From an uncultured Candidatus Saccharibacteria bacterium (GTDB taxonomy: Bacteria; Patescibacteriota; Saccharimonadia; CAILAD01; JADZBC01): DNA of 64,000 nucleotides. The DNA is taken from NCBI GenBank assembly GCA_964413715.1, contig CAYPSN010000001.1:10613-74612 (forward strand). The letters are read 5' to 3'. Below, piece by piece: positions 4,006 through 50,182 of this stretch. The notes under the pieces are model-generated. The model worked only from the letters and a program-made list of their open reading frames with translations. It ran no database searches and was not told where the DNA came from. The position numbers and the translations under genes are program-made. Positions within the stretch are counted from its first letter, which is position 1; each line of letters begins with the position of its first letter.

Positions 4006-5331
4006 ATGCGCCGGCTGAATGTCAGAACGAAATTCTATCTTATTATAGCACTGACTCTGTTTGTGGCTGTGGTCGCACTGCCACGCGAAGACCGAGTGTT
4101 TTCTGCTTTGGGTATGAAGAATGCTCAATTAAAGGTACGCCAAGGCTTAGACCTTCAGGGCGGTGCGGCTTTAACGTACCAAGCCGATCTTTCGAAGCTT
4201 AAAGCAGAAGAAAAGGCTAAAGCCATTCAGGGTGTGATAGATGTGGTAAATAAACGTGTTAACCCAAGTGGTACGAGCGAAGTGGTCGTACAAACAAGTG
4301 GCCAGGACCGGGTATCGGTTCAACTCCCAGGCGTGACTGATGTTAATCAGGCCATTTCGTTGATTGGCAAAACAGCGCAGCTCGATTTTTACGAAGTCCA
4401 GTCTGGCCAAACGACACCAATTCCAACCAGCATTACTGGTAAGGACTTATCGAGTGTAACGGTTAGCTTTGATCCTCAGTCCGCCCAGCCAGTGGTAGCC
4501 TTCGAACTCAAGGGTGGTGAACCAACTAAGAAGTTTGCCGAGCTAACCACTCGCATTAATCAGACAAACGGTAGACTGGCGATCGTGCTTGATGGTCAGG
4601 CTTTGTTTAACGGCACGGTTTCAACTCCGATTACTGATGGTAAGGGGCAATTGCAGGGGTTTGAGAGCGTAAAGGCAGCGCAAGAAACTGCTGTGTTACT
4701 CAACGCCGGTGCGCTACCAGTACCAGTAAAGCTCGTAGAACAGCGCACGGTCGGCGCCACACTTGGCTCGGAATCGATTACGAAAAGCATCGTAGCAGGC
4801 CTCATTGGTATTTTGGCGGTTATGATATTCATGATTGCTTATTATCGCTTGGCGGGGGTGGTAGCGAGCGTAGCCTTGGTTATTTACACGCTAATCAACA
4901 TCGCCTACTTCAAATTTAGTGTTTTTATGCCTGGCTTTTTCATATTTAGTCCAATAGTGCTGACACTGGCCGGAATAGCAGGTTTTATTTTAAGTGTGGG
5001 TATGGCCGTTGACGCCAATATTCTGATTTTCGAGCGCATGAAAGAAGAAGTGCGCAATGGTAAGGAGATGCAGGCGGCGCTTAAAGCTGGCTTTAGCCGC
5101 GCCTGGGATAGTATTAGGGACTCGAATATATCAACACTGATTACCTGTTTAATTCTGTATTGGTTCGGCGTACCAATTATCAAGGGCTTTGCCGTTACTC
5201 TAGGCTTAGGTGTTGTCATTAGTATGTTTACTGCTATCACAATTTCACGCAATCTCATGGAAATCCTCATTACCACTAAATTTGGTTCCAACCCACGAAA
5301 TTATGGCTTCAAAGAGGAGGTGCAGAAATGA
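4006..5331 (+). CDS. secD: protein-export membrane protein SecD
   Basis: 441 aa. N-terminal TM, large periplasmic domain, six C-terminal TM helices. Overlaps secF by 4 nt. Confidence 0.9.
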   Translation: MRRLNVRTKFYLIIALTLFVAVVALPREDRVFSALGMKNAQLKVRQGLDLQGGAALTYQADLSKLKAEEKAKAIQGVIDVVNKRVNPSGTSEVVVQTSGQDRVSVQLPGVTDVNQAISLIGKTAQLDFYEVQSGQTTPIPTSITGKDLSSVTVSFDPQSAQPVVAFELKGGEPTKKFAELTTRINQTNGRLAIVLDGQALFNGTVSTPITDGKGQLQGFESVKAAQETAVLLNAGALPVPVKLVEQRTVGATLGSESITKSIVAGLIGILAVMIFMIAYYRLAGVVASVALVIYTLINIAYFKFSVFMPGFFIFSPIVLTLAGIAGFILSVGMAVDANILIFERMKEEVRNGKEMQAALKAGFSRAWDSIRDSNISTLITCLILYWFGVPIIKGFAVTLGLGVVISMFTAITISRNLMEILITTKFGSNPRNYGFKEEVQK

Positions 5332-6242
5332 ATATCGTAGCTCGCCGCAGACTCTGGTTTGGCATATCGCTGGCAATGATTATTCCAGGGATGATTTCGC
5401 TCGCACTGTGGGGGCTCAAGCCTGGTATTGATTTTCGTGGCGGCCAAGAAATGGAGCTTAAGGGTCCGCAAAACCAATCTGCAGTTCGCACGCTCTTTAT
5501 AAGCTCTGGCGCGCAGGATGTGACGGTTACGACTACGGGCAGTAGTGGTCTTTTGGTCCGCTATCGTGTGGAAGACAAGGATTCTAAGAAGGTAGAGTCG
5601 GCCCTAAAGTCATCATTAGCGAAAGGCAACTATACTCAAGTATCATTCAGCTCAGTCGGACCATCGGTAAGCGCCGACATTACGCGCAACGCGCTAATAA
5701 GTATCTTGCTGGCTTCTACGGCCATCTTGCTCTACATTGCCTTCGCATTCCGTAATGCACCGCCACCAGTAAGTTCTTGGAACTTCGGCATCTCCGCCAT
5801 TATTGCCATGGTTCACGATGCACTCATCTTGATTGGATTATTCTCGATCTTGGGCCATTTCTTTGAGGTGCAAATCGACAGTTTGTTTGTAACGGCAGTG
5901 CTTACGACAATTGGTTTTTCGGTGCACGATACCATCGTGGTATTCGACCGCGTGCGTGAAAACCTTCGTAAGTACAATAAGCCGTTCGACGAAGTGGTGA
6001 ACCTAAGTATTAATGAAACCTTTGCTCGCTCGCTTAATACATCGCTTACGGTAATTTTAACTCTTACGGCATTATTGCTGTTCGGTGGTGAGTCAATTCG
6101 CTTATTCGTACTGGCCTTGTTGGTCGGTACCATTGCCGGAACGTTCTCTTCGATATTCAATGCCTCACCAATGCTCGTAGTACTTAATAACCGCAAGATC
6201 AAGCAAAAGCTCAAGAAAGAACAAGCGAGTAAGAAGAAATAG
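5328..6242 (+). CDS. secF: protein-export membrane protein SecF
   Basis: 304 aa. SecF topology with Lys-rich C-tail. Coupled to secD. Confidence 0.9.
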   Translation: MNIVARRRLWFGISLAMIIPGMISLALWGLKPGIDFRGGQEMELKGPQNQSAVRTLFISSGAQDVTVTTTGSSGLLVRYRVEDKDSKKVESALKSSLAKGNYTQVSFSSVGPSVSADITRNALISILLASTAILLYIAFAFRNAPPPVSSWNFGISAIIAMVHDALILIGLFSILGHFFEVQIDSLFVTAVLTTIGFSVHDTIVVFDRVRENLRKYNKPFDEVVNLSINETFARSLNTSLTVILTLTALLLFGGESIRLFVLALLVGTIAGTFSSIFNASPMLVVLNNRKIKQKLKKEQASKKK

Positions 6243-6320
6243 TAGTAGTGCTTGCACTGCTATAGCAAGAAGTATTAAATAGTCGTGGTCGACATTCTCT
6301 AGACGCACAGGAGGTGTGGT

Positions 6321-6974
6321 ATGGTCGATCCAGTAATCCTATCTCTAGGAGGCACAGATGGAGAGGTTCGGTTGAGCCCTCCGTTGTTCCTGAACAACAG
6401 AACCAACACGAGCCCTGCTGACCTGTCGCAGTTCACGCCCCAAGGCAATGGGGTTTATGGGCTGCAAGGTGGTCTCGTTGACCCATTCCATATGGGGGAG
6501 ATCATGGAGGCGGCAGGTGGCGTGGTGTTCTTTGGACCTCCAAAGCACAGGGAGGACTTCATGGGCATGCTGCGTGTTCTTGGTATTGCCAACACAAACC
6601 TTGATGTAGGGGACGCTCACAACTGCCATTACTGGGCTTTTGTGAAGGACTCGGAACAGCCTGGGGAGGATGGCTACTTGCGGCAGATGCGTGTGGTCCA
6701 CAGGTTCGGTCTCAGGTTCCTTTTTGGGGCCATCGGTGACGTTGGGTACGACGAGTTTCCTGATCAGCCGATCTCACTACCGGATTTCCTATGGGCTTTC
6801 ATCCAAGATCAGGTGAAGCTCTACGGCACCGGTTTTACGAACCAGGAGTTGGCAGGAACATTCGGGGGCGATGGTGACTTTGCACGCGAGGCTCTGTCGT
6901 TCGGCCTGATGATCGAGAACTCGTATCACAAGGTTTATCGGATCTGGAGTCGAGCCTGGCTGGTAACCAAGTAG
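6321..6974 (+). CDS. hypothetical protein, compositionally foreign (about 55-57% GC against a ~48% GC background)
   Basis: 217 aa. Strong SD aggagg 7 nt before the ATG; own promoter-like TTGCAC-17-TTAAAT upstream; followed by a tandem-hairpin terminator. No recognisable family. Mixed codon usage including AGG/AGA/CTA. Confidence 0.6.
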   Translation: MVDPVILSLGGTDGEVRLSPPLFLNNRTNTSPADLSQFTPQGNGVYGLQGGLVDPFHMGEIMEAAGGVVFFGPPKHREDFMGMLRVLGIANTNLDVGDAHNCHYWAFVKDSEQPGEDGYLRQMRVVHRFGLRFLFGAIGDVGYDEFPDQPISLPDFLWAFIQDQVKLYGTGFTNQELAGTFGGDGDFAREALSFGLMIENSYHKVYRIWSRAWLVTK

Positions 6975-6988
6975 TTGCAGATGTTGAT

Positions 6989-7056
6989 GGGGCGGCAGGC
7001 GACAGGACCTGTCCGCCCCGGGCGATCTAGTTCTTCTAGGTCGCCTCTTTTATTTA
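6989..7056. terminator. tandem-hairpin bidirectional intrinsic terminator between convergent genes
   Basis: GGGGCGGCAGG..CCTGTCCGCCCC stem, then GGCGATCTAG-ttctt-CTAGGTCGCC stem, followed by TCTTTTATTT. Confidence 0.55.
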
Positions 7057-8345
7057 CTTCTCACAATGTAGTAGCCGTCTTGTCCGTCAGGGTCGCCAGT
7101 ATTCTCTAGCTTGGCAGCAATAGTAAAGGTTTTGCCATCGGATTTATAGGCGTATTTTATTTTTTCTGTGTCGGTACTTGAGGGGTCATAATTGACATAG
7201 CTAATATACGGCGGAGTAGTGTATTGCAAGGGGTAGACGACCTTGATGTCGTCACCCTCGGGATATGTGCCTTGCTGTTGCTTATAGACTTCTAGGGCCG
7301 CCGAGATGCTATTGAGGTCGTCTTTGCGCGTTTGGTCGCGTTTTAGCACGTCAGAAGCGACGTTACTGGTGTTTTGTGCAGCTGGAGTCGTTTGTTGCGG
7401 TTGCGGGCTTTCAGCGGGCTTAGGGCGGTTTACAAACCAATAGCCAGCGGTGCCAACAAAAATAAATGCTAGCAGGGTAGATATGTACAGAACAGTCTGG
7501 CTTGGCTGTTTTTTTTGTGACCGGTCTGCTTGCTCGGCGTCATCTTGGGCTGTTTTAGGCGCAGGTGTGACGTTGGTAATGTCTGGCAAAACTTCCGGTT
7601 CTGGTTGGCCAACTTTTGTATCTTGGTCGCTTTTGACGTCTTGTTCAGCAATAGCCTCGGCTAATGCAAAAGCGCGCGTGTGGCTACTGGCTACCTGTTC
7701 TTCTTCAGGAGTTACCTTGTCGTCATTGCTGGTGTTGGTGGGCGGACTAGGAGTAAAGTCGGTAACGTCTAAGTTCGGTGTAGCGTGATGAAGGTCTGCC
7801 GACATAGTTGCGCTACGTATAGGGTGGTGATTCATTTGGTTGATTTTGGCTTGCAAAGGCAAGTCCGAATAAACCTCTGGTTTAGCAGGGGCGTCTTGGG
7901 TTGGCAATGCGTTGATATTGAGCGCTGAGGGCAGCTCTGGTTCGGAGAGCTGACTTGGCAGCTCTGGTACAACGAGCCGCTTAAGGCGCGCGCGCAAACG
8001 TCTATGAAAGCGGTCATTTGGAGCATGTGAGGTCCTAGTTGGTTGGCTGGCTTGCTGCTGCACTGACATAACAGGAGGAACTAATCTTTCAGGTAATGAA
8101 GCATGACCTCCCTGGGCTAGTTGGGTGTTTTGGGTAGGAGGCGCCTGGCCTACATCTGCCGAGTGGGTAGTGGGTTCGCTATGGCGAACTAAGGTGCCGC
8201 ATTCGGGGCACATATAGCCAACGGCGCTATGCACCATGGGGGATTTGCAGTTGGGGCACAGATGGGATGAGGGGGTAGTTATATCTGACATAATTCTTAT
8301 GCCTATTATAGATGATTTGTGGGTTTTTTGCCCATAGCAAGACAA
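7050..8345 (-). CDS. zinc-ribbon membrane protein with Pro/Gln/Thr-rich low-complexity linker and C-terminal extracytoplasmic domain
   Basis: 431 aa. N-terminal C-x2-C-x13-C-x2-C motif (CPNCKSP...CPECG). Long P/Q/T-rich segment, one TM helix (LYISTLLAFIFVGTAGYWFV), C-terminal ~130-aa domain. Confidence 0.6.
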   Translation of the reverse strand: MSCYGQKTHKSSIIGIRIMSDITTPSSHLCPNCKSPMVHSAVGYMCPECGTLVRHSEPTTHSADVGQAPPTQNTQLAQGGHASLPERLVPPVMSVQQQASQPTRTSHAPNDRFHRRLRARLKRLVVPELPSQLSEPELPSALNINALPTQDAPAKPEVYSDLPLQAKINQMNHHPIRSATMSADLHHATPNLDVTDFTPSPPTNTSNDDKVTPEEEQVASSHTRAFALAEAIAEQDVKSDQDTKVGQPEPEVLPDITNVTPAPKTAQDDAEQADRSQKKQPSQTVLYISTLLAFIFVGTAGYWFVNRPKPAESPQPQQTTPAAQNTSNVASDVLKRDQTRKDDLNSISAALEVYKQQQGTYPEGDDIKVVYPLQYTTPPYISYVNYDPSSTDTEKIKYAYKSDGKTFTIAAKLENTGDPDGQDGYYIVRSK

Positions 8346-8456
8346 AAAGTACCAAAATTACTCAAAAAAACTGTTGTATTTTAGACTGTTGTAGATTTAT
8401 ACTAGTAAGTAAGTAATTTCAGTTATAAAAAGATAAAAAGTAAATAAAAAAACAAT

Positions 8457-8726
8457 ATGTTAAAGCTGTTTATAACCTCAAAAACAAGACGAAAAATCAT
8501 CACAATATATAGCAAATACCCCGACTATCGTGTTCATGTACGTGGTCTGGCCAAGATTTTGCGAGAAGATCCCGGCAATATTCAGCGCGAACTCTCTCGT
8601 ATGGAGAAAATCGGCTACGTGAAGTCGGCCAAAGAAGGTAACGCTAAGCTGTACTGGGTGAACCAGAATTTCCTTTTATTTAAGGAGCTGCAGAGTATGG
8701 TGCTAAAGACCACCAGTAAAAAATAA
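8457..8726 (+). CDS. small winged-helix (ArsR/MarR/PadR-like) transcriptional regulator
   Basis: 89 aa. Pattern RVHVRGLAKILREDPGNIQRELSRMEKIGYV is typical of a wHTH recognition helix followed by a wing. Confidence 0.45.
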   Translation: MLKLFITSKTRRKIITIYSKYPDYRVHVRGLAKILREDPGNIQRELSRMEKIGYVKSAKEGNAKLYWVNQNFLLFKELQSMVLKTTSKK

Positions 8727-8735
8727 GGATCAAAA

Positions 8736-8921
8736 ATGGGATTATTGCAAAAAGTCAAAACAAAACTGTCACACAAAGATATCCGTCAGCAAAAAGCCGA
8801 GAAGATGGCCCAAACCGAGCGTTTTTTACATGGCCACCGTCAGGCCTACCGGCCGACCGCACCACTTGGCTTCAAGCCTAGAAGCGACAGCAGCTACCAC
8901 TTCGCACGCGCTGGTCGCTAG
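8736..8921 (+). CDS. small basic ORF, doubtful
   Basis: 61 aa, no recognisable domain; sits between the regulator and recJ. Confidence 0.2.
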   Translation: MGLLQKVKTKLSHKDIRQQKAEKMAQTERFLHGHRQAYRPTAPLGFKPRSDSSYHFARAGR

Positions 8922-8961
8922 TCGTTGATATAAGCACGAACTAATAAGATATACTGGCTAT

Positions 8962-10671
8962 ATGGCGAAAAAACATATAGCTGACACCACCAGGCTTGGG
9001 TATGACTGGGTCTATGCGTCTGACGAGAGTGCACCAGTTGCAAGCTATCCCGAACTGAAAAAGCTTCTCTTGCGTCAATTAAAGCTTAGTGAGCAGGACG
9101 ATGATTTCTTTACACCAGACTATAGTGAGACTCTGCATGACCCTTTGTTGCTAGGCGGCGTGGAAGCTGCAGTTAGGCGCATTGATCAGGCTCTAGAGCG
9201 TAATGAGCAGATTGTGGTATACGGCGATTACGACATCGACGGCATTACAGCCACTGCACTACTCGTAGACGTATTGCGACAGCTTGGGGCTCAGGTTCGT
9301 CCCTATATCCCTGACAGGTTTGAAGAGGGCTACGGGCTCAACGATGAGGCGCTTCTAGGGCTCAAGAAGTCTGGAGCGGATCTGGTTATTACCGTTGATT
9401 GTGGCATTACCTCGGCAAATGAAGTTGCTAAAGCAGCGCAGAGCGGCCTCGAGATTATCGTGACTGACCATCATACAGTGCCAGAGGCTACACCAGATGC
9501 TGCAGTTGCGTGCATTAACCCACGCTTAAAAAACGACCCGTACCCATATAAAGACTTGGCTGGGGTGGCGGTGGCGTTCAAGTTGGCCAAAGCCCTTGCA
9601 GCTCAACATCCAGACAAAATAAAGCCTGGGCAAGAGAAGTGGCTGCTAGATTTGGTGGCTCTCGGTACCGTCTGCGACGTTGTGCCGCTGAATGGTGAAA
9701 ATCGCGCTCTTGTACAGTTTGGCCTGAAGGTCTTGGCCAAGACGCCGCGAGTTGGTCTTCAGGCTTTGGCCGAGGTAAGTAGTGTGGAGCTAAAAAGCAT
9801 TCAGGCAAGCGATCTAGGCTTTCGGTTTGGGCCGCGACTCAATGCAGCGGGGCGACTTGAACATGCCTCGAAAGCCTTGCAGCTTGTTATTACTCAGGAT
9901 GTGGAAGAGGCCAAACGACTTGCGCATGACCTTAACCAGCTTAATCGCGAACGGCAAGAGGAAACAACTCGAATATTTGCCGAGGCAATGGCGCAGGCCG
10001 AACAATTCAGCTCAGATAGCATTTTGGTATTGTCAGATCCAAATTGGTCGCATGGTATCGTTGGCTTGGTGGCGAGCAGGGTAAGCGAGGCCATGCATAA
10101 GCCAGCAATTATTTTGCAGGAGCTGGGTGGTAAGACTAAGGGTTCGGCGCGTAGCATTGGTCAATTCAATATTATCCAGGCCGTGAATGCTTGCTCTGAC
10201 ATACTAGAGCGCCACGGGGGCCATGCTTTTGCGGCGGGTATGACGCTGAATACAACTCAAATTAGTGAATTCCGCCGCCGGATTAATCTGTATGCTGCAG
10301 AGCACAAGGATGATTTGTTGGTTGGTAGAGAACTTACTATTGCAGCCCAGCTGGATATAGCGCTGCTTCATAAGGACCTTCTCGCTTTACTTGATAGTTT
10401 TGAGCCGTTTGGCAACGGCAACTCGCAGCCAGTTTTGAGTGCACAGCTGAAACTTAGCAGATTACGCCCAGTCGGCGCTGACTTGAGTCACTTGCAGTTT
10501 GGATTTGAAGCTCCCGGTGGGGTGATTGGGGGAATCAGTTTTGGCGCGACTACAAAGTGGCCTTGGCTGAAGGTGGGCGAGACAGTCCAGGTGGCTTTTC
10601 GCGCTAGCCGCAACATTTGGCAAGGGGTAGAGAGCCTGCAGCTAGAGGTGGTCGACGTAAGGCCCGCATAG
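8962..10671 (+). CDS. recJ: single-stranded-DNA-specific exonuclease RecJ
   Basis: 569 aa. DHH motifs (YGDYDIDGITATALL, VTDHH), DHHA1 domain and C-terminal OB-like region. Confidence 0.9.
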   Translation: MAKKHIADTTRLGYDWVYASDESAPVASYPELKKLLLRQLKLSEQDDDFFTPDYSETLHDPLLLGGVEAAVRRIDQALERNEQIVVYGDYDIDGITATALLVDVLRQLGAQVRPYIPDRFEEGYGLNDEALLGLKKSGADLVITVDCGITSANEVAKAAQSGLEIIVTDHHTVPEATPDAAVACINPRLKNDPYPYKDLAGVAVAFKLAKALAAQHPDKIKPGQEKWLLDLVALGTVCDVVPLNGENRALVQFGLKVLAKTPRVGLQALAEVSSVELKSIQASDLGFRFGPRLNAAGRLEHASKALQLVITQDVEEAKRLAHDLNQLNRERQEETTRIFAEAMAQAEQFSSDSILVLSDPNWSHGIVGLVASRVSEAMHKPAIILQELGGKTKGSARSIGQFNIIQAVNACSDILERHGGHAFAAGMTLNTTQISEFRRRINLYAAEHKDDLLVGRELTIAAQLDIALLHKDLLALLDSFEPFGNGNSQPVLSAQLKLSRLRPVGADLSHLQFGFEAPGGVIGGISFGATTKWPWLKVGETVQVAFRASRNIWQGVESLQLEVVDVRPA

Positions 10672-10750
10672 GCTTGAATAAGAATGAATTTTAACGTATA
10701 ATTACTCCTGAATTACACAAGATAACACGATAACAACAGGAGTTAATGAG

Positions 10751-10960
10751 TTGATTCAAGTAACAGCTAAAGATAACGAGTCGGCCGAGAGCTTACTACG
10801 CCGCTTTAATAAGAAAGTAATTCAGTCTGGAGTGCTCGGCGAAGCACGTCGTAAACGATACTTCGAAAAGCCAGTTTCTAAGACTGAAGCTCGGGCTACA
10901 GCTATCCGCAAAGCAAAGCGCAAAGAACAGAAAACCCGCGAACTTTTAGGGATTAAGTAA
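10751..10960 (+). CDS. rpsU: 30S ribosomal protein S21 (TTG start)
   Basis: 69 aa. LLRRFNKKV...GVLGEARRKRYFEKPVSKTEARATAIRKAKRKE matches the S21 signature. SD aggag upstream. Confidence 0.85.
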   Translation: MIQVTAKDNESAESLLRRFNKKVIQSGVLGEARRKRYFEKPVSKTEARATAIRKAKRKEQKTRELLGIK

Positions 10961-11397
10961 TGCACGTCATCGAGCAGCTCGAACAAGATTTAGCAGCTGC
11001 CATGCGAGAGCGTGATCAGGTACGCCTGCAGGTTCTTCGTTTACTCAAGAGTGCACTCAAGAACTATCAAATTGAAGTAGGGCATGAGCTAAGTCAGCAA
11101 GAAATGATGCGTGTTCTGCAGAAAGAAGCTAAGAAGCGTCGTGATTCGATCGAGGCATACGAGAAAGCCGGTCGCAACGACTTAGTGGCCGAAGAGTCTG
11201 CTGAACTTAAGGAGATTGATCGCTATTTGCCGGCTCAAATGAGTGACGATGAGCTTCGTGCTATTACACAGAAGGTTATTGGTGATAATCCAGAGGCACA
11301 GATGGGTCAAATTATCGGCCAAGTGTTGGCACGTACTGACGGGCAAGCTGATGGCGCAGCGGTGAGTCGTATCGTGCGTGAAGAATTGAGTAAATAG
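10960..11397 (+). CDS. yqeY: GatB/YqeY domain protein
   Basis: 145 aa. YqeY-type helical protein in the usual rpsU-yqeY neighbourhood. Confidence 0.8.
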   Translation: MHVIEQLEQDLAAAMRERDQVRLQVLRLLKSALKNYQIEVGHELSQQEMMRVLQKEAKKRRDSIEAYEKAGRNDLVAEESAELKEIDRYLPAQMSDDELRAITQKVIGDNPEAQMGQIIGQVLARTDGQADGAAVSRIVREELSK

Positions 11398-11407
11398 GCA
11401 AAACACT

Positions 11408-11884
11408 ATGGCTCTAAGCCTAACGATTGCTACTCCATTACCAGAGGGGATTTCGACCGAAGATTTGTCACTCGCACTCGATGCGACTGAAATCGCGGCT
11501 GACGTAACTGCAGCAGGGCAAATCAGTTTGGCGCTGGTGGACGAGAAGACCACCCAGCAGCTTAATAAGCAATACGCTGGCAATGACTACGCTACGGACG
11601 TATTGAGCTTTAACTACTTCGAGGACGAAGCTGAGGAGCCTAGTCAAGAGGATACACTAGGCGAGGTAATAATTTGCCTGCCAATTGCTCAGAAACAGGC
11701 CGAGGAGCACGATCAGACTCTACGCAGCGAAATTATGCTGCTCTTCGTGCATGGTCTTATGCATATCTTCGGATTCGATCACCAGTCTCCTGATGACCAA
11801 GCTAGCTTTGAGACCGCCCAGGGTGCTATATTAAGTAAGCTTAAGATTAATGCGAGGAATATATTTGATGGTAACTCTCGGTAG
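11408..11884 (+). CDS. ybeY: rRNA maturation endoribonuclease YbeY
   Basis: 158 aa. Zinc-binding HGLMHIFGFDH (H3xH5xH) motif. Confidence 0.9.
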   Translation: MALSLTIATPLPEGISTEDLSLALDATEIAADVTAAGQISLALVDEKTTQQLNKQYAGNDYATDVLSFNYFEDEAEEPSQEDTLGEVIICLPIAQKQAEEHDQTLRSEIMLLFVHGLMHIFGFDHQSPDDQASFETAQGAILSKLKINARNIFDGNSR

Positions 11885-47966: not shown

Positions 47967-47971
47967 GGCAG

Positions 47972-48415
47972 CTAGGGCCTGCGCTCCGGCTTCAACTCCA
48001 GATCGAGCTTGGCAAGCGAAGCTTCGACCAGCTCGAGACATGCAGCGCCGAAGCCCGTAATGGCGCGCAGCTCACTGGCGTCACGCTGTACGAGTTCGCC
48101 AACGGTGTTGATTCCTGCTCGTCGGAGGCATTCGGCCGTTCGAGTCTTCACTCCCTGCGTGAAGGGGACCCCCTCGAGCTTGATGTTCAGAAGGTCCTCG
48201 ATGTTCATCTTGAGAGTCTCGTGGCCTCGGCCAATGAACTCGGTGGTGATGTGCCTCTCTTCCACTCGGATTACGGCTCTCACTACGAGACCGTGGTATC
48301 GACCTTCCAGTGCCTCGATGTCATTCAAGGCGCTCAGGATTGCTAGGTGTTCTCCCGTAAGGCTGATTTCGACATCTGCCTTTTGGGGTACGACTTCGGA
48401 TCCGAAATCGGGCAT
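47972..48415 (-). CDS. island gene A: stand-alone RpoA C-terminal-fragment-like protein (end of alphaNTD + linker + alphaCTD double HhH)
   Basis: 147 aa. TAECLRRAGINTVGELVQRDASELRAITGFG..LELVEASLAKLDLELK aligns with actinobacterial RpoA alphaCTD (VRSANCLKREGVHTVGELV..DLLDIRNFGQKS..LGLSLK). N-terminal 60 aa aligns with the last alphaNTD strand and linker. About 57% GC. Confidence 0.6.
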   Translation of the reverse strand: MPDFGSEVVPQKADVEISLTGEHLAILSALNDIEALEGRYHGLVVRAVIRVEERHITTEFIGRGHETLKMNIEDLLNIKLEGVPFTQGVKTRTAECLRRAGINTVGELVQRDASELRAITGFGAACLELVEASLAKLDLELKPERRP

Positions 48416-48476
48416 TGCAGTGGCCTTTTGTTCTCTGCGGGGCTACCGCAGCACATCCACGGTGGATGATTAGCAA

Positions 48477-48505
48477 ATAATATCACAAATATAGTAAAAA
48501 GTCAA
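48477..48505 (-). promoter_or_regulatory. promoter of island gene A: TTGACT-17-TATTAT (minus strand)
   Basis: The AT-rich 90-bp spacer contains near-consensus hexamers. The 5'UTR carries hairpin CUGCGGUAGCCCCGCAG and an AAAAGG SD. Confidence 0.5.
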
Positions 48506-48512
48506 TATCATT

Positions 48513-48563
48513 ATAACGAAAGGACCCCTGAACGAATCGGGGGCCTTTTCGTTCAGGGGTCGG
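48513..48563. repeat. island repeat copy R2
   Basis: ATAACGAAAGGACCCCTGAACGAATCGGGGGCCTTTTCGTTCAGGGGTCGG; 12-bp perfect arms CCCCTGAACGAA/TTCGTTCAGGGG plus an alternative overlapping stem. Confidence 0.8.
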
Positions 48564-48580
48564 TTTGATGGTGGGCCAGG

Positions 48581-48958
48581 TCAGCGGCTGAGGATGACCG
48601 TGCAGGATGGGTTGTCCTGGATCAGCCAGTCACCGTTGTACTGGACCAGCTTGCCATCACAGACCTTGCTGGTCTTGGAGCTGTCTGTCAAGGTGTAGCG
48701 CACGGACCTATTCCAGACCGAGAGCTCGACCACGTGGATCTTGTCGTAGTGCGACTCGACCTCCGTCGTGACACGGGCATCTTCCTTGGCCCGGCTCTCA
48801 TCCACGAGGTACATGCCATTGGCGAAGACCACGAAGATGACGGCCAGTACCCCGAAGGCGATGGCTGGCTTCCAGTGTTTCTTGGAGATCAGCAGGACAC
48901 CGGTGGCGACTGCGAGCACTCCCGCCATCATCAGTGCGACGATTACTTCTGCGCTCAT
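48581..48958 (-). CDS. island gene B: hypothetical two-TM membrane protein with about 70-aa extracytoplasmic Cys-containing C-domain
   Basis: 125 aa. GC3 about 80%. Perfect SD AAGGAGG 6 nt before the ATG. Confidence 0.55.
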   Translation of the reverse strand: MSAEVIVALMMAGVLAVATGVLLISKKHWKPAIAFGVLAVIFVVFANGMYLVDESRAKEDARVTTEVESHYDKIHVVELSVWNRSVRYTLTDSSKTSKVCDGKLVQYNGDWLIQDNPSCTVILSR

Positions 48959-49000
48959 GGCGCCTCCTTGTTCGGGGCCTCAGATTTAAGGCTGAAGGGT

Positions 49001-49038
49001 ATATTAGCATATTATGCAATAAAAGTAAATACATACAA
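49001..49038 (-). promoter_or_regulatory. promoter of island gene B (TTGTAT-18-TAATAT or TTTACT-17-TAATAT, minus strand)
   Basis: AT-rich spacer with two overlapping candidate hexamer pairs. Confidence 0.4.
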
Positions 49039-49051
49039 GGTTTTTTGTGTA

Positions 49052-49103
49052 ATAACGAAAAGACCCCCGAACGAATCGGGGGCCTCTTCGTTCGGGGGTC
49101 GGG
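49052..49103. repeat. island repeat copy R3
   Basis: AATAACGAAAAGACCCCCGAACGAATCGGGGGCCTCTTCGTTCGGGGGTCGGG. Confidence 0.8.
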
Positions 49104-49113
49104 TTGTGCCGGC

Positions 49114-49533
49114 TCAGCCGGAGGTGATGACCAGCTTGATGTCGGCGAAGGCGTAGGTCAGCGCCTGCTCGAACTCCAGGTCCTCGCCGATGCCGTGGCC
49201 GAAGTGCTCTCGAACGTCGACGGCTCGGATCACCTCGGTCTCCATGAGCACGCCCAGGGCGTGGTCGATGACCTGTGCCTTGAGCTTCTCCTGCGGATCG
49301 CTCCGCTTGGTGTCGATCAGGACCACACGGTTGTGCAGCTGGCTGAGCTTCTCGTGCTTCTCGTGGAGTCGGCCCTCGACGTTGATCACTGCATGTTCTG
49401 CAAGGATCTGGAAGCGCCCAGAGGTCACGATGGTCTGGATCTGGCCATCGTCACCCGTGAAGCGCAGGCTTCCGTCGGGCATGGTGGCCAAGAGGCCTAC
49501 CTGCAGGGCAGGCGTGGTTGCAGTTGCAGCCAT
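49114..49533 (-). CDS. island gene C: hypothetical soluble protein
   Basis: 139 aa. GC3 about 85%. SD GAAGGAG. No confident family; a weak epsilon-subunit-like GRFQILAEHAVI motif was considered and not trusted. Confidence 0.5.
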   Translation of the reverse strand: MAATATTPALQVGLLATMPDGSLRFTGDDGQIQTIVTSGRFQILAEHAVINVEGRLHEKHEKLSQLHNRVVLIDTKRSDPQEKLKAQVIDHALGVLMETEVIRAVDVREHFGHGIGEDLEFEQALTYAFADIKLVITSG

Positions 49534-49568
49534 GTCGGTTCTCCTTCGTGAGTGGATGACAGTACATA

Positions 49569-49597
49569 ATTATGCATGATTAATTCAAAAATGTCAA
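49569..49597 (-). promoter_or_regulatory. promoter of island gene C: TTGACA-17-CATAAT (minus strand)
   Basis: Consensus -35 and 17-nt spacer in an AT-rich spacer. Confidence 0.5.
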
Positions 49598-49620
49598 TAT
49601 TAAAGAGACATTTTCATTCT

Positions 49621-49672
49621 ATAACGAAAAGGCCCCCGAACGAATCGGGGGCCTTTCCGTTCAGGGGTCGTG
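49621..49672. repeat. island repeat copy R4
   Basis: ATAACGAAAAGGCCCCCGAACGAATCGGGGGCCTTTCCGTTCAGGGGTCG. Confidence 0.8.
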
Positions 49673-49687
49673 TTGTGAGGCCTGCCT

Positions 49688-50119
49688 CTAGCCGATCGGC
49701 TTGAGGCTCAGCCCGTGCTCGGCCAGCTTCTCCTTGACCAGGTCGAGGCTCTTCTGGCCGAAGTGCGTGATCGCGAGGAGGTCGTCCTCGGTCTTCTCGA
49801 CGAGCTGGCTGACGGTCTCGATCTGCGCACGACGTAGGTTGTTGCGGGTGCGGTCGACCTGGCTGTTGCCGGGGTCGGGGTGGCCGATGAGCTCCTCGAT
49901 GGTCATCTCCGGGGCCGGCCTCTGCCCGATGAACTCGATGCGCGACTTGTCGCCGATGAACTCGATGCTCGAGACCTGGGTCTCGATGCGCGCGCTGAGC
50001 TTGACGTCGGGGTAGTCCTCCGGGATGCGCAGGATGGCGGCCTTGGCCGCCAGGATCTGGTCCGTGGGGCCCGTCAAGACGAGCTCGGCGGAGATGCTGT
50101 TGGGTGCGGGGTCGGTCAT
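49688..50119 (-). CDS. island gene D: stand-alone actinobacterial-type RpoA C-terminal fragment (last alphaNTD strand + linker + alphaCTD)
   Basis: 143 aa. QVDRTRNNLRRAQIETVSQLVEKTEDDLLAITHFGQKSLDLVKEKLAEHGLSLK closely resembles actinobacterial RpoA CTD (..[47 protein letters not shown]), including the actinobacterial FGQKS signature. N-terminal TGPTDQILAAKAAIL resembles the last alphaNTD element. GC3 about 95%. Confidence 0.7.
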   Translation of the reverse strand: MTDPAPNSISAELVLTGPTDQILAAKAAILRIPEDYPDVKLSARIETQVSSIEFIGDKSRIEFIGQRPAPEMTIEELIGHPDPGNSQVDRTRNNLRRAQIETVSQLVEKTEDDLLAITHFGQKSLDLVKEKLAEHGLSLKPIG

Positions 50120-50182
50120 ATTTCCTCTTTCGTTGGGCGACCGGTTGCGTCCTTGTGGACGATTTTACAAGACGATTTTGCA

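Follow-up and report, generated by a model that had tools for sequence, protein, structure and literature searches.

A strain-variable accessory gene downstream of secF in a Saccharibacteria-like genome and its uncurated, mobile protein family

How did a gene rich in guanine and cytosine (GC) come to lie between secF and a convergent membrane protein gene, and what might its product do? The question is raised by an open reading frame (ORF) of 217 amino acids (aa) in a stretch of 64,000 nucleotides from an uncultured Candidatus Saccharibacteria bacterium (contig CAYPSN010000001.1), the whole of which is called the window in the following. An earlier note, made from the letters of the window, had described this ORF as a GC-anomalous singleton and as a candidate for horizontal acquisition. 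Horizontal acquisition of the gene in this Saccharibacteria-like genome is supported by its absence in relatives, by DNA similarity that is confined to the ORF, and by a deviant composition. Taken as a whole, the explanation which we consider probable is that the gene is real, mobile, accessory, and partnerless, with a role that is possibly of the antidote type.

The variable slot downstream of secF

Translation confirmed an ATG-initiated coding sequence for a 217-aa protein at 6321-6974 on the plus strand, present as a single copy in the window. Upstream lie secD (4006-5331) and secF (PF02355; 5328-6242, plus strand), and downstream follow a gene for a 431-aa membrane protein with weak zinc-ribbon matches (7050-8345, minus strand) and then recJ. 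The position between secF and the zinc-ribbon membrane protein had been described correctly, the latter being encoded on the opposite strand. The gene is accessory and specific to the strain, and it occupies the gap that separates the stop codons of the convergent secF and membrane genes.

The presence or absence of the gene at this position was checked in the four closest relatives as judged by SecF (99, 85, 82, and 81% identity; L061-L064). All four keep the order priA-secD-secF-slot-membrane gene-recJ, and none of them carries the gene. This is the opposite of the outcome which the earlier note had named as a refutation, namely homologues at this position in all relatives. In two of them the slot is occupied by a SET-domain (PF00856) gene of 164-165 aa (L061:5926-6423 and L063:4239-4733), in L062 it is empty and comprises 88 bp, and in L064 it holds an ORF for a very acidic protein of 75 aa (L064:5975-6202) with a GC content of 54.8% against 48.7% for the locus and no Pfam match. 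This short ORF was considered as a remnant of the gene and was rejected, since tblastn found no similarity. The slot downstream of secF is a hot spot for accessory-gene turnover.

The comparison with L061 delimits the exchanged DNA. From position 328 to about 5577 the window and L061 are about 100% identical in a sliding profile. The left recombination breakpoint lies near 5.58 kb, so that the tract begins about 650 bp inside secF, and the 3' part of secF within the tract (5578-6238, plus strand) shows 91-93% identity. The strain-variable segment (6239-7050) reaches from the last bases of secF to the stop codon of the convergent membrane gene (blastn breakpoints 6238/7051). It cannot be aligned between the two genomes, its equivalent in L061 being a segment of 520 bp with the SET-domain gene. 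On the right flank (7051-11537; membrane gene, two small ORFs, recJ, rpsU and onward) the identity is 80-97%: 80-94% in the zinc-ribbon membrane gene and then about 95% up to at least 11.5 kb, where the available L061 contig ends. From this profile it follows that the gene is embedded in a tract which was exchanged by homologous recombination with a relative diverged by 5-20%. The gene thus either entered this genome or was replaced in the sister strain when related strains with different slot contents underwent homologous recombination. The breakpoints at the stop codons simply mark the end of the alignable coding sequence. The membrane gene itself (7050-8345, minus strand) is the least conserved part of the tract; its low identity may reflect a fast-evolving surface protein.

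We also looked for terminal inverted repeats or a target-site duplication bracketing 6239-7050 and found none, only short repeats of low identity being present. A transposon or insertion sequence was rejected because of the lack of bracketing repeats around this segment.

The composition of the gene deviates from that of its host in overall GC content, in the GC content of third codon positions (GC3), and in codon choice. The ORF has 54.7% GC, the window as a whole 48.8%; among windows of 654 nt the ORF ranks within the top 3.2%, and in windows of 400 nt the GC content over the gene peaks at 55.0-55.7%. Its GC3 of 0.638 is the highest among 43 resident ORFs (range 0.41-0.57; ORFs of at least 150 aa outside the island at 48-50 kb). 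Codon usage departs from the rest of the window (G = 84.2, 40 degrees of freedom), and the per-codon deviation is exceeded by just one other gene, a short one. The anomalous GC content and the odd codon usage that had been pointed out were therefore both real, the latter as a general shift toward codons ending in G or C (GAG 9/10, AAG 5/5, AAC 8/9, ATC 7/8, TTC 11/17). The particular codons named at the time do not account for it: AGG and AGA make up four of 11 arginine codons against 15% in the window (Fisher p = 0.07), and CTA four of 21 leucine codons against 13%, neither difference being significant.

The expression signals that had been proposed fared differently. A perfect Shine-Dalgarno sequence, AGGAGG, can be read at 6309-6314 (plus strand), 6 nt before the ATG. 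The promoter-like sequence TTGCAC-17-TTAAAT (6252-6280, plus strand) matches the consensus at seven of 12 positions and was not called by the scan; shuffled sequences yielded about 1.4 sites at or above the threshold, which puts it at chance level. The tandem hairpins of the supposed terminator exist: a first, G+C-rich one 3' of the stop codon (6989-7019, plus strand; fold) and a second one followed by a T-run and resembling an intrinsic terminator (7020-7055, hairpin 7020-7046, plus strand; terminator scan and fold). The adjacent hairpins gave a folding z score of -4.3, and the second was called as a terminator in the scan. Yet they are not the gene's own. Their sequence is shared with L064, a relative which lacks the gene and carries a different ORF in the slot; the 75-aa ORF of L064 is followed by the same tandem hairpins, and the two trailers are homologous (alignment z = 8). 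The hairpins therefore belong to the resident junction of the convergent genes and not to the cargo. The leader of the 75-aa ORF is also similar, of the GGAGGTGT type, the likeness being weak (z = 2.7). A dispersed repeat was considered for the hairpins and rejected, as each of the two occurs once in the window. This single occurrence and the sharing with L064 and its different ORF were also noted with regard to an integron gene cassette, in which an attC-type recombination site would travel with the ORF or an array or integrase would lie nearby.

An uncurated protein family and its distribution

The term singleton, in the sense of a gene without relatives, did not hold. A search of 5.8 billion proteins returned at least 233 full-length homologues of about 200-220 aa (43-70% identity, E ≤ 1e-3), all of which carry the annotation "hypothetical". 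Members in RefSeq are likewise named hypothetical, for example WP_271091104.1 in Hoeflea poritis. The family is small, comprising 276 clusters at 50% identity in an exhaustive profile search of 1.84 billion representatives.

An alignment of 294 sequences contains about 25 nearly invariant positions. In the numbering of the window protein these are G66, G67, F71, Q122, R124, Q149, F160, G182-G183-D184, and E190, and toward the C-terminus L192, F194-G195, E199-N200, R207, W209-S210-R211, W213-L214, and K217. Membership was defined by a full-length alignment together with the motifs GG-x2-[YF]F, Q-x-R, GGDG, E-x-L-x-FG, EN, and R-x-WSR-x-WL-x-x-K; the window protein aligns with the family from end to end and possesses every nearly invariant residue. 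The C-terminus ...YRIWSRAWLVTK is found, nearly invariant, in almost all members, and the 13-residue tail is near-invariant from the alphaproteobacteria through the Nanoarchaeota. The sequences HNCHYWAF and DPFHMGE, which the earlier note had emphasized, are present in the window protein, but they are not family motifs; their columns are poorly conserved and the consensus reads KDYAVF and NPFxxAP, respectively. Pairwise ratios of nonsynonymous to synonymous substitution rates (dN/dS) within the family range from 0.06 to 0.19, indicating strong purifying selection, and the gene is therefore clearly functional. Thus the family consists of conserved, uncurated cytoplasmic proteins of about 200-220 aa, and the gene of the window is a functional, protein-coding member.

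The 217-aa protein is soluble and acidic (isoelectric point 4.9) without a transmembrane segment (maximum Kyte-Doolittle (KD19) hydropathy 0.92). As had been noticed, it is rich in Gly, Phe, and Trp (12.9, 7.8, and 1.8% compared with 7.6, 3.4, and 0.9% in resident proteins). The claim that it matches no known family holds insofar as no curated family was matched, but a sizeable, conserved, and unnamed family exists. The window protein had no match in Pfam, NCBIfam, PHROGs, or PADLOC. Scans of the curated libraries with 46+10 family members and seven divergent members gave no match above threshold, and neither the single sequence nor the family profile found a significant match among the PDB sequences. 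In the literature, no mention of the family was found under its sequence motif, its accession numbers, or DUF7076. The AlphaFold2 (AF2) model is of the alpha+beta type with a long C-terminal beta-hairpin (predicted local distance difference test, pLDDT, 79.5; predicted template modelling score, pTM, 0.80), the conserved segment 27-62 being poorly defined; this segment may become ordered only as part of a complex. Two AF2 models (pTM 0.65 and 0.80) were compared with PDB and BFVD by Foldseek without finding a relative (best E 0.2-0.5, template modelling score, TM, ≤ 0.24).

A scan of one genome per GTDB species yielded 54 family loci, and a metagenome scan 80 further ones. By their labels, the hosts in the candidate phyla radiation (CPR) are Saccharibacteria, Paceibacterota, Minisyncoccia, Zambryskiibacteria, Yanofskybacteria, and Sungbacteria, and those among the DPANN archaea are Pacearchaeota, Woesearchaeota, Nanoarchaeota, Aenigmarchaeota, and Micrarchaeota. 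Further hosts are Planctomycetota, metagenome-assembled genomes (MAGs) labelled Spirochaetia and Gammaproteobacteria, and, among the alphaproteobacteria, cultured Hoeflea and Nitratireductor in addition to a Hyphomicrobium MAG.

Neither the phylogeny nor this distribution is vertical. A neighbour-joining tree places the DPANN sequences in one tight clade nested inside the CPR sequences, and in it the gene of the window clusters with a few copies of the Saccharibacteria type. DNA similarity between lineages extends from a few tens of nucleotides 5' of the start codon through the stop codon and no further. A Yanofskybacteria and a Sungbacteria locus (L031 and L035) share 90% nucleotide identity across 663 bp (synonymous divergence, dS, 0.44) in unrelated flanks, and MAGs labelled as different DPANN phyla share 80-88% across 610-720 bp with flanks that cannot be aligned. 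One protein cluster at 90% identity unites Sungbacteria, Yanofskybacteria, and an unclassified bacterium. The DPANN-type copy (homologue P0117) lies between and co-directional with aEF-1alpha (GTP-eEF1A_C) and rpsJ (L147:5392-5994, L148:3167-3769, and L149:545-1147), an insertion that falls within the conserved elongation-factor/S10 gene cluster of archaea. With these two genes flanking the copy on three contigs, the archaeal context is genuine.

Composition and decay were assessed at the loci as well. In 75% of 48 loci the gene is richer in GC than the DNA around it, the difference reaching 15 points; for DPANN hosts (34% GC) and high-GC hosts its GC content agrees with that of the host. One locus, L016, contains a 5'-truncated remnant with a GC3 of 0.91 in an AT-rich flank, and other decayed copies are frameshifted or interrupted or are 3' remnants. 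Phage, plasmid, and viral contigs were searched in IMG/VR, INPHARED, and PLSDB, and none carried a copy. Judged from these sequence comparisons, the family gene behaves as a mobile stand-alone unit.

Neighbours, domain fusions, and possible role

Across 135 loci (56 in an earlier round) no conserved neighbour was found. The largest shared neighbour family occurs in six to seven loci, some of these loci being one contig that both collections had returned. Most of the 143 neighbours counted in a census were unrelated housekeeping genes. Defence genes among them were one HerA gene, adjoining a SIR2-domain gene, one AbiTii, and two SoFic, and an enrichment of defence islands was not evident among these neighbours. 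In L006 and L013 the family gene is situated directly 5' of rpsP-KH-trmD, and in Hoeflea between carB and greA.

Among species-representative genomes, the closest full-length homologue (67% identity) is that of a Saccharibacteria genome (L004/L007). Beside it (L004/L007:8831-11855) lie a DUF87/HerA-like ATPase gene, a SIR2-domain gene, and a gene for an N6/N4 DNA methyltransferase fused to ParB-N, a context resembling a defence island which is not seen at most other loci. A Pol-beta-type nucleotidyltransferase (PF01909) of 592-625 aa was observed at or near the family gene, on either side, at L018:5982-7859 and L040:3271-5049 and in L115 and L020 (DPANN).

In a GC-rich branch outside the CPR the family domain is always C-terminal in longer proteins. 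HEAT repeats are clear in P0197, while the matches of P0222, P0224, and P0191 fall short of the Pfam cut-off; P0228 carries ankyrin repeats; and P0211 possesses a separate N-terminal NADAR domain (residues 41-187). In this branch a NADAR domain is fused to the family domain at L146:65-1372, and stand-alone NADAR genes lie 36 bp (L144:1272-1829), 2.1 kb (L145:8428-8958), and 4.1 kb (L045:3275-3835) from the family gene. Assuming a background of at most one NADAR gene per 2 Mb, three such genes in about 170 kb are far above expectation. No NADAR gene was found in about 890 kb of CPR and DPANN flanks, and the NADAR model (PF08719) did not match the window protein. The ankyrin-fused member in L145 sits within a run of small unannotated genes.

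NADARs strip ADP-ribose from guanine and cytosine bases and are antitoxins or stand-alone protective enzymes which spread horizontally like bacterial PARGs (PMC11125620, PMC11543638, PMC11833690, PMC12945103). Horizontally transferred stand-alone NADAR and PARG hydrolases protect against ADP-ribosylating toxins (PMC11125620, PMC11833690). In view of the HEAT, ankyrin, and NADAR fusions, the nearby NADAR genes, and the lack of a linked antitoxin, a protective role is therefore the most likely of the functions considered. By analogy, we tentatively suggest a stand-alone factor of the antidote or immunity type in the sphere of conflicts over NAD and ADP-ribose or a related nucleic-acid modification, as one possibility in which our confidence is low. 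The protein would act alone, as an enzyme or as a tight-binding protein. Since no dedicated partner was found and the family is present in bacteria and archaea, it probably acts on or binds something universal. A putative functional surface would consist of the GGDG loop, Q122/R124, E190, E199-N200, and the C-terminal beta-hairpin R207-W-S-R-x-W-L-x-x-K217.

A more specific form of this idea would be a new fold and enzyme family, that is, a single-gene protective module such as a hydrolase or binder countering an NAD-derived modification of a universal target, exchanged between CPR and DPANN in ORF-sized pieces, possibly by DNA uptake in shared groundwater. A universally conserved target would explain an unchanged function in bacteria and archaea. 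We regard this extended scenario as rather improbable.

Several observations weigh against this explanation, above all against the possible antidote role. The NADAR link is restricted to the GC-rich non-CPR branch, where it concerns four of about 24 loci, and the arrangement is never that of an operon, the genes being convergent, divergent, or kilobases apart. Most of the neighbouring genes have housekeeping roles, and defence islands are encountered at few loci. Immunity proteins are usually fast-evolving, and this family is unusually conserved, including the 13-residue tail. The searches with the window protein in Pfam, NCBIfam, PHROGs, PADLOC, and PDB gave no match and Foldseek no relative that could point to a function. 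Among the MAG labels that provide lineage names, many are unverified. Finally, the direction of the exchange at the slot may have been either one, with a gain of the gene in the window or a gain of the SET gene in L061.

Four rival explanations were weighed against this. The strongest of them is an accessory or housekeeping-type factor outside any conflict, for example a binder of a universally conserved machine such as the translation apparatus, or a small-molecule enzyme. It would be retained for its usefulness, and its mobility would be incidental. The extreme conservation across domains under strong purifying selection is what such a factor would show, and so are the predominantly housekeeping neighbours with the aEF-1alpha/rpsJ, rpsP-KH-trmD, and carB/greA contexts. 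However, in the tiny CPR and DPANN genomes housekeeping neighbours are to be expected in any case, which makes the context weak evidence. For such a factor the distribution is very patchy, given only 276 clusters in the 1.84 billion proteins searched; the closest relatives lack the gene and pseudogenised copies exist, and fusions to HEAT, ankyrin, and NADAR domains would be unusual for a core factor. We consider this explanation unlikely.

The protein could instead be a toxin itself, for example a divergent effector resembling ADP-ribosyltransferases (ARTs) which is neutralised by NADAR, as in DarT1-NADAR and YarT-YbiA. NADARs are known as antitoxins of ART toxins (PMC11125620, PMC11543638). 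The family proteins are about as large as DarT, four loci have NADAR either as a fusion or in the vicinity, and the conserved R...E...S together with acidic residues could build an active site. Against this, more than 100 CPR and DPANN loci have no NADAR, macro-domain, or other conserved candidate antidote, and no NADAR gene forms an operon with the family gene or is both co-directional and adjacent to it; an antitoxin in an operon was not found at any of the 135 loci. There is no ART or DarT match in Pfam even at E = 10 and no H-Y-E motif, and the combination that marks ART toxins (DarT, YarT, RES, and others), an ART fold or a match to a family hidden Markov model together with an H-Y-E or R-S-E catalytic motif, was not found. 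Foldseek found no ART fold although PDB holds many, and the N-terminal fusions are repeat domains rather than modules for secretion or trafficking. Because of the more than 100 genomes without a candidate antidote and the lack of a detectable ART fold, a toxin role is very unlikely.

A selfish gene of the homing type would account for the mobility in another way. In the manner of a free-standing homing endonuclease, such a gene would cut empty sites in the intergenic gaps between conserved genes, and the recombinational repair that this enforces would leave a copy of the gene there. The precise insertion in gaps between conserved genes at many different loci, the flanking tract reminiscent of co-conversion, the similarity between lineages that ends with the ORF, and a size typical of Seg- and Mob-type endonucleases all accord with it. 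Yet no GIY-YIG, HNH, LAGLIDADG, or PD-(D/E)xK match was obtained in Pfam or PHROG, the HNCH column is not conserved, and no terminal inverted or direct repeats flank the gene. The insertion sites share no common target sequence, the neighbours differing everywhere. Purifying selection throughout the family and conservation across domains are atypical for homing endonucleases, and the phage, plasmid, and viral collections do not contain the gene. This explanation we regard as highly improbable.

That the gene is a vertically inherited resident, fast-evolving or oddly composed, or a spurious ORF, is hardly credible: the log-likelihood of its synonymous codon choice (-1.155) does fall inside the resident range (-1.04 to -1.23), but all four nearest relatives lack it with synteny kept on both sides, a SET gene takes its place in a strain about 100% identical upstream, and it has 233 homologues under purifying selection and an outlying GC3.

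Seen from the window, the result is an ordinary one, since an accessory gene that varies among strains occupies a recombination hot spot flanked by two convergent core genes. Less ordinary is the family, being uncurated, without a Foldseek relative, strongly selected, and mobile across domains. It has been transferred repeatedly among the smallest bacteria and archaea known, with hardly more than the ORF itself travelling, and could serve as a clean marker for tracing recent gene flow between the CPR and DPANN radiations. Should its activity become known, the family could prove to be a further component of the ADP-ribosylation/NADAR conflict toolkit, and it could explain how CPR and DPANN organisms benefit from a gene that is repeatedly acquired despite extreme genome reduction.

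Elsewhere in the window a GC-rich island (47970-50120, up to 61% GC) was observed. It contains two paralogous ORFs on the minus strand, 47972-48415 (147 aa) and 49688-50119 (143 aa), both of which end in a module like the C-terminal domain of the RNA-polymerase alpha subunit (PF03118, E 4e-10 and 1e-13). The DNA between the two ORFs contains a gene for a small membrane protein with weak holin-like matches (48581-48958) and a 139-aa ORF without an assigned function. No tRNA genes and no Rfam families at the gathering threshold were found in the 64-kb window.

Comparison with known systems

The free-standing homing endonuclease genes of phages resemble the family gene in their intergenic insertion, in their presence/absence polymorphism among close relatives, and in the recombination tracts that flank them. 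The family gene differs from them in being strongly conserved and cellular, in having no nuclease motif, and in its absence from phages.

The immunity families of polymorphic toxins (SUKH/SMI1-KNR4 and HEAT- or ankyrin-repeat families) comprise small, soluble, stand-alone proteins which are frequent orphans and spread horizontally, as set out in the classifications of Zhang and Aravind. They are also found fused to HEAT or ankyrin repeats or to other antidote domains. The family described here is likewise small, soluble, stand-alone, frequently orphan, horizontally spread, and fused to HEAT and ankyrin repeats and to another antidote domain. Unlike immunity proteins it is conserved far more highly than usual, and no adjacent toxin gene was found. 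Among 63 members no Pfam Imm or SUKH match was obtained, and hhalign gave a probability of 0.4% against a YobK sequence, which is a weak test.

Among curated models only Pfam DUF7076 (PF23273) recurred. It matched eight of 46 members weakly over 33 residues (AVFxxESxxPGxDGYLxQMRxVSKFGLRFMF), with about 13 bits compared with a cut-off of 27 bits, a best E of 0.007, and an alignment that extended over a quarter of the model; for the window protein no match was obtained.

The ART toxins linked to NADAR, DarT1 and YarT (PMC11543638, PMC11125620), share with the family that they are small cytoplasmic proteins of roughly similar size which are sometimes found near NADAR. In contrast to them, the family has no detected ART fold or H-Y-E motif and no NADAR operon, and stands alone in more than 100 genomes, a situation that would not be tolerable for a toxin.

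The last comparison is with stand-alone NADAR/YbiA proteins and PARG-type macrodomains. The family has no sequence or fold similarity to either, and its link to NADAR is confined to the non-CPR branch. For the macrodomain, hhalign gave a probability of 1.3% against E. coli YmdB, and none was among the Foldseek matches. What the family has in common with the stand-alone NADAR and PARG genes is the manner of occurrence, that is, a single-gene unit which is patchy, often unconserved between related species, and frequently transferred horizontally without an obligatory partner (PMC11125620, PMC11833690). In addition, it is physically linked to NADAR itself, by one fusion and three nearby genes.

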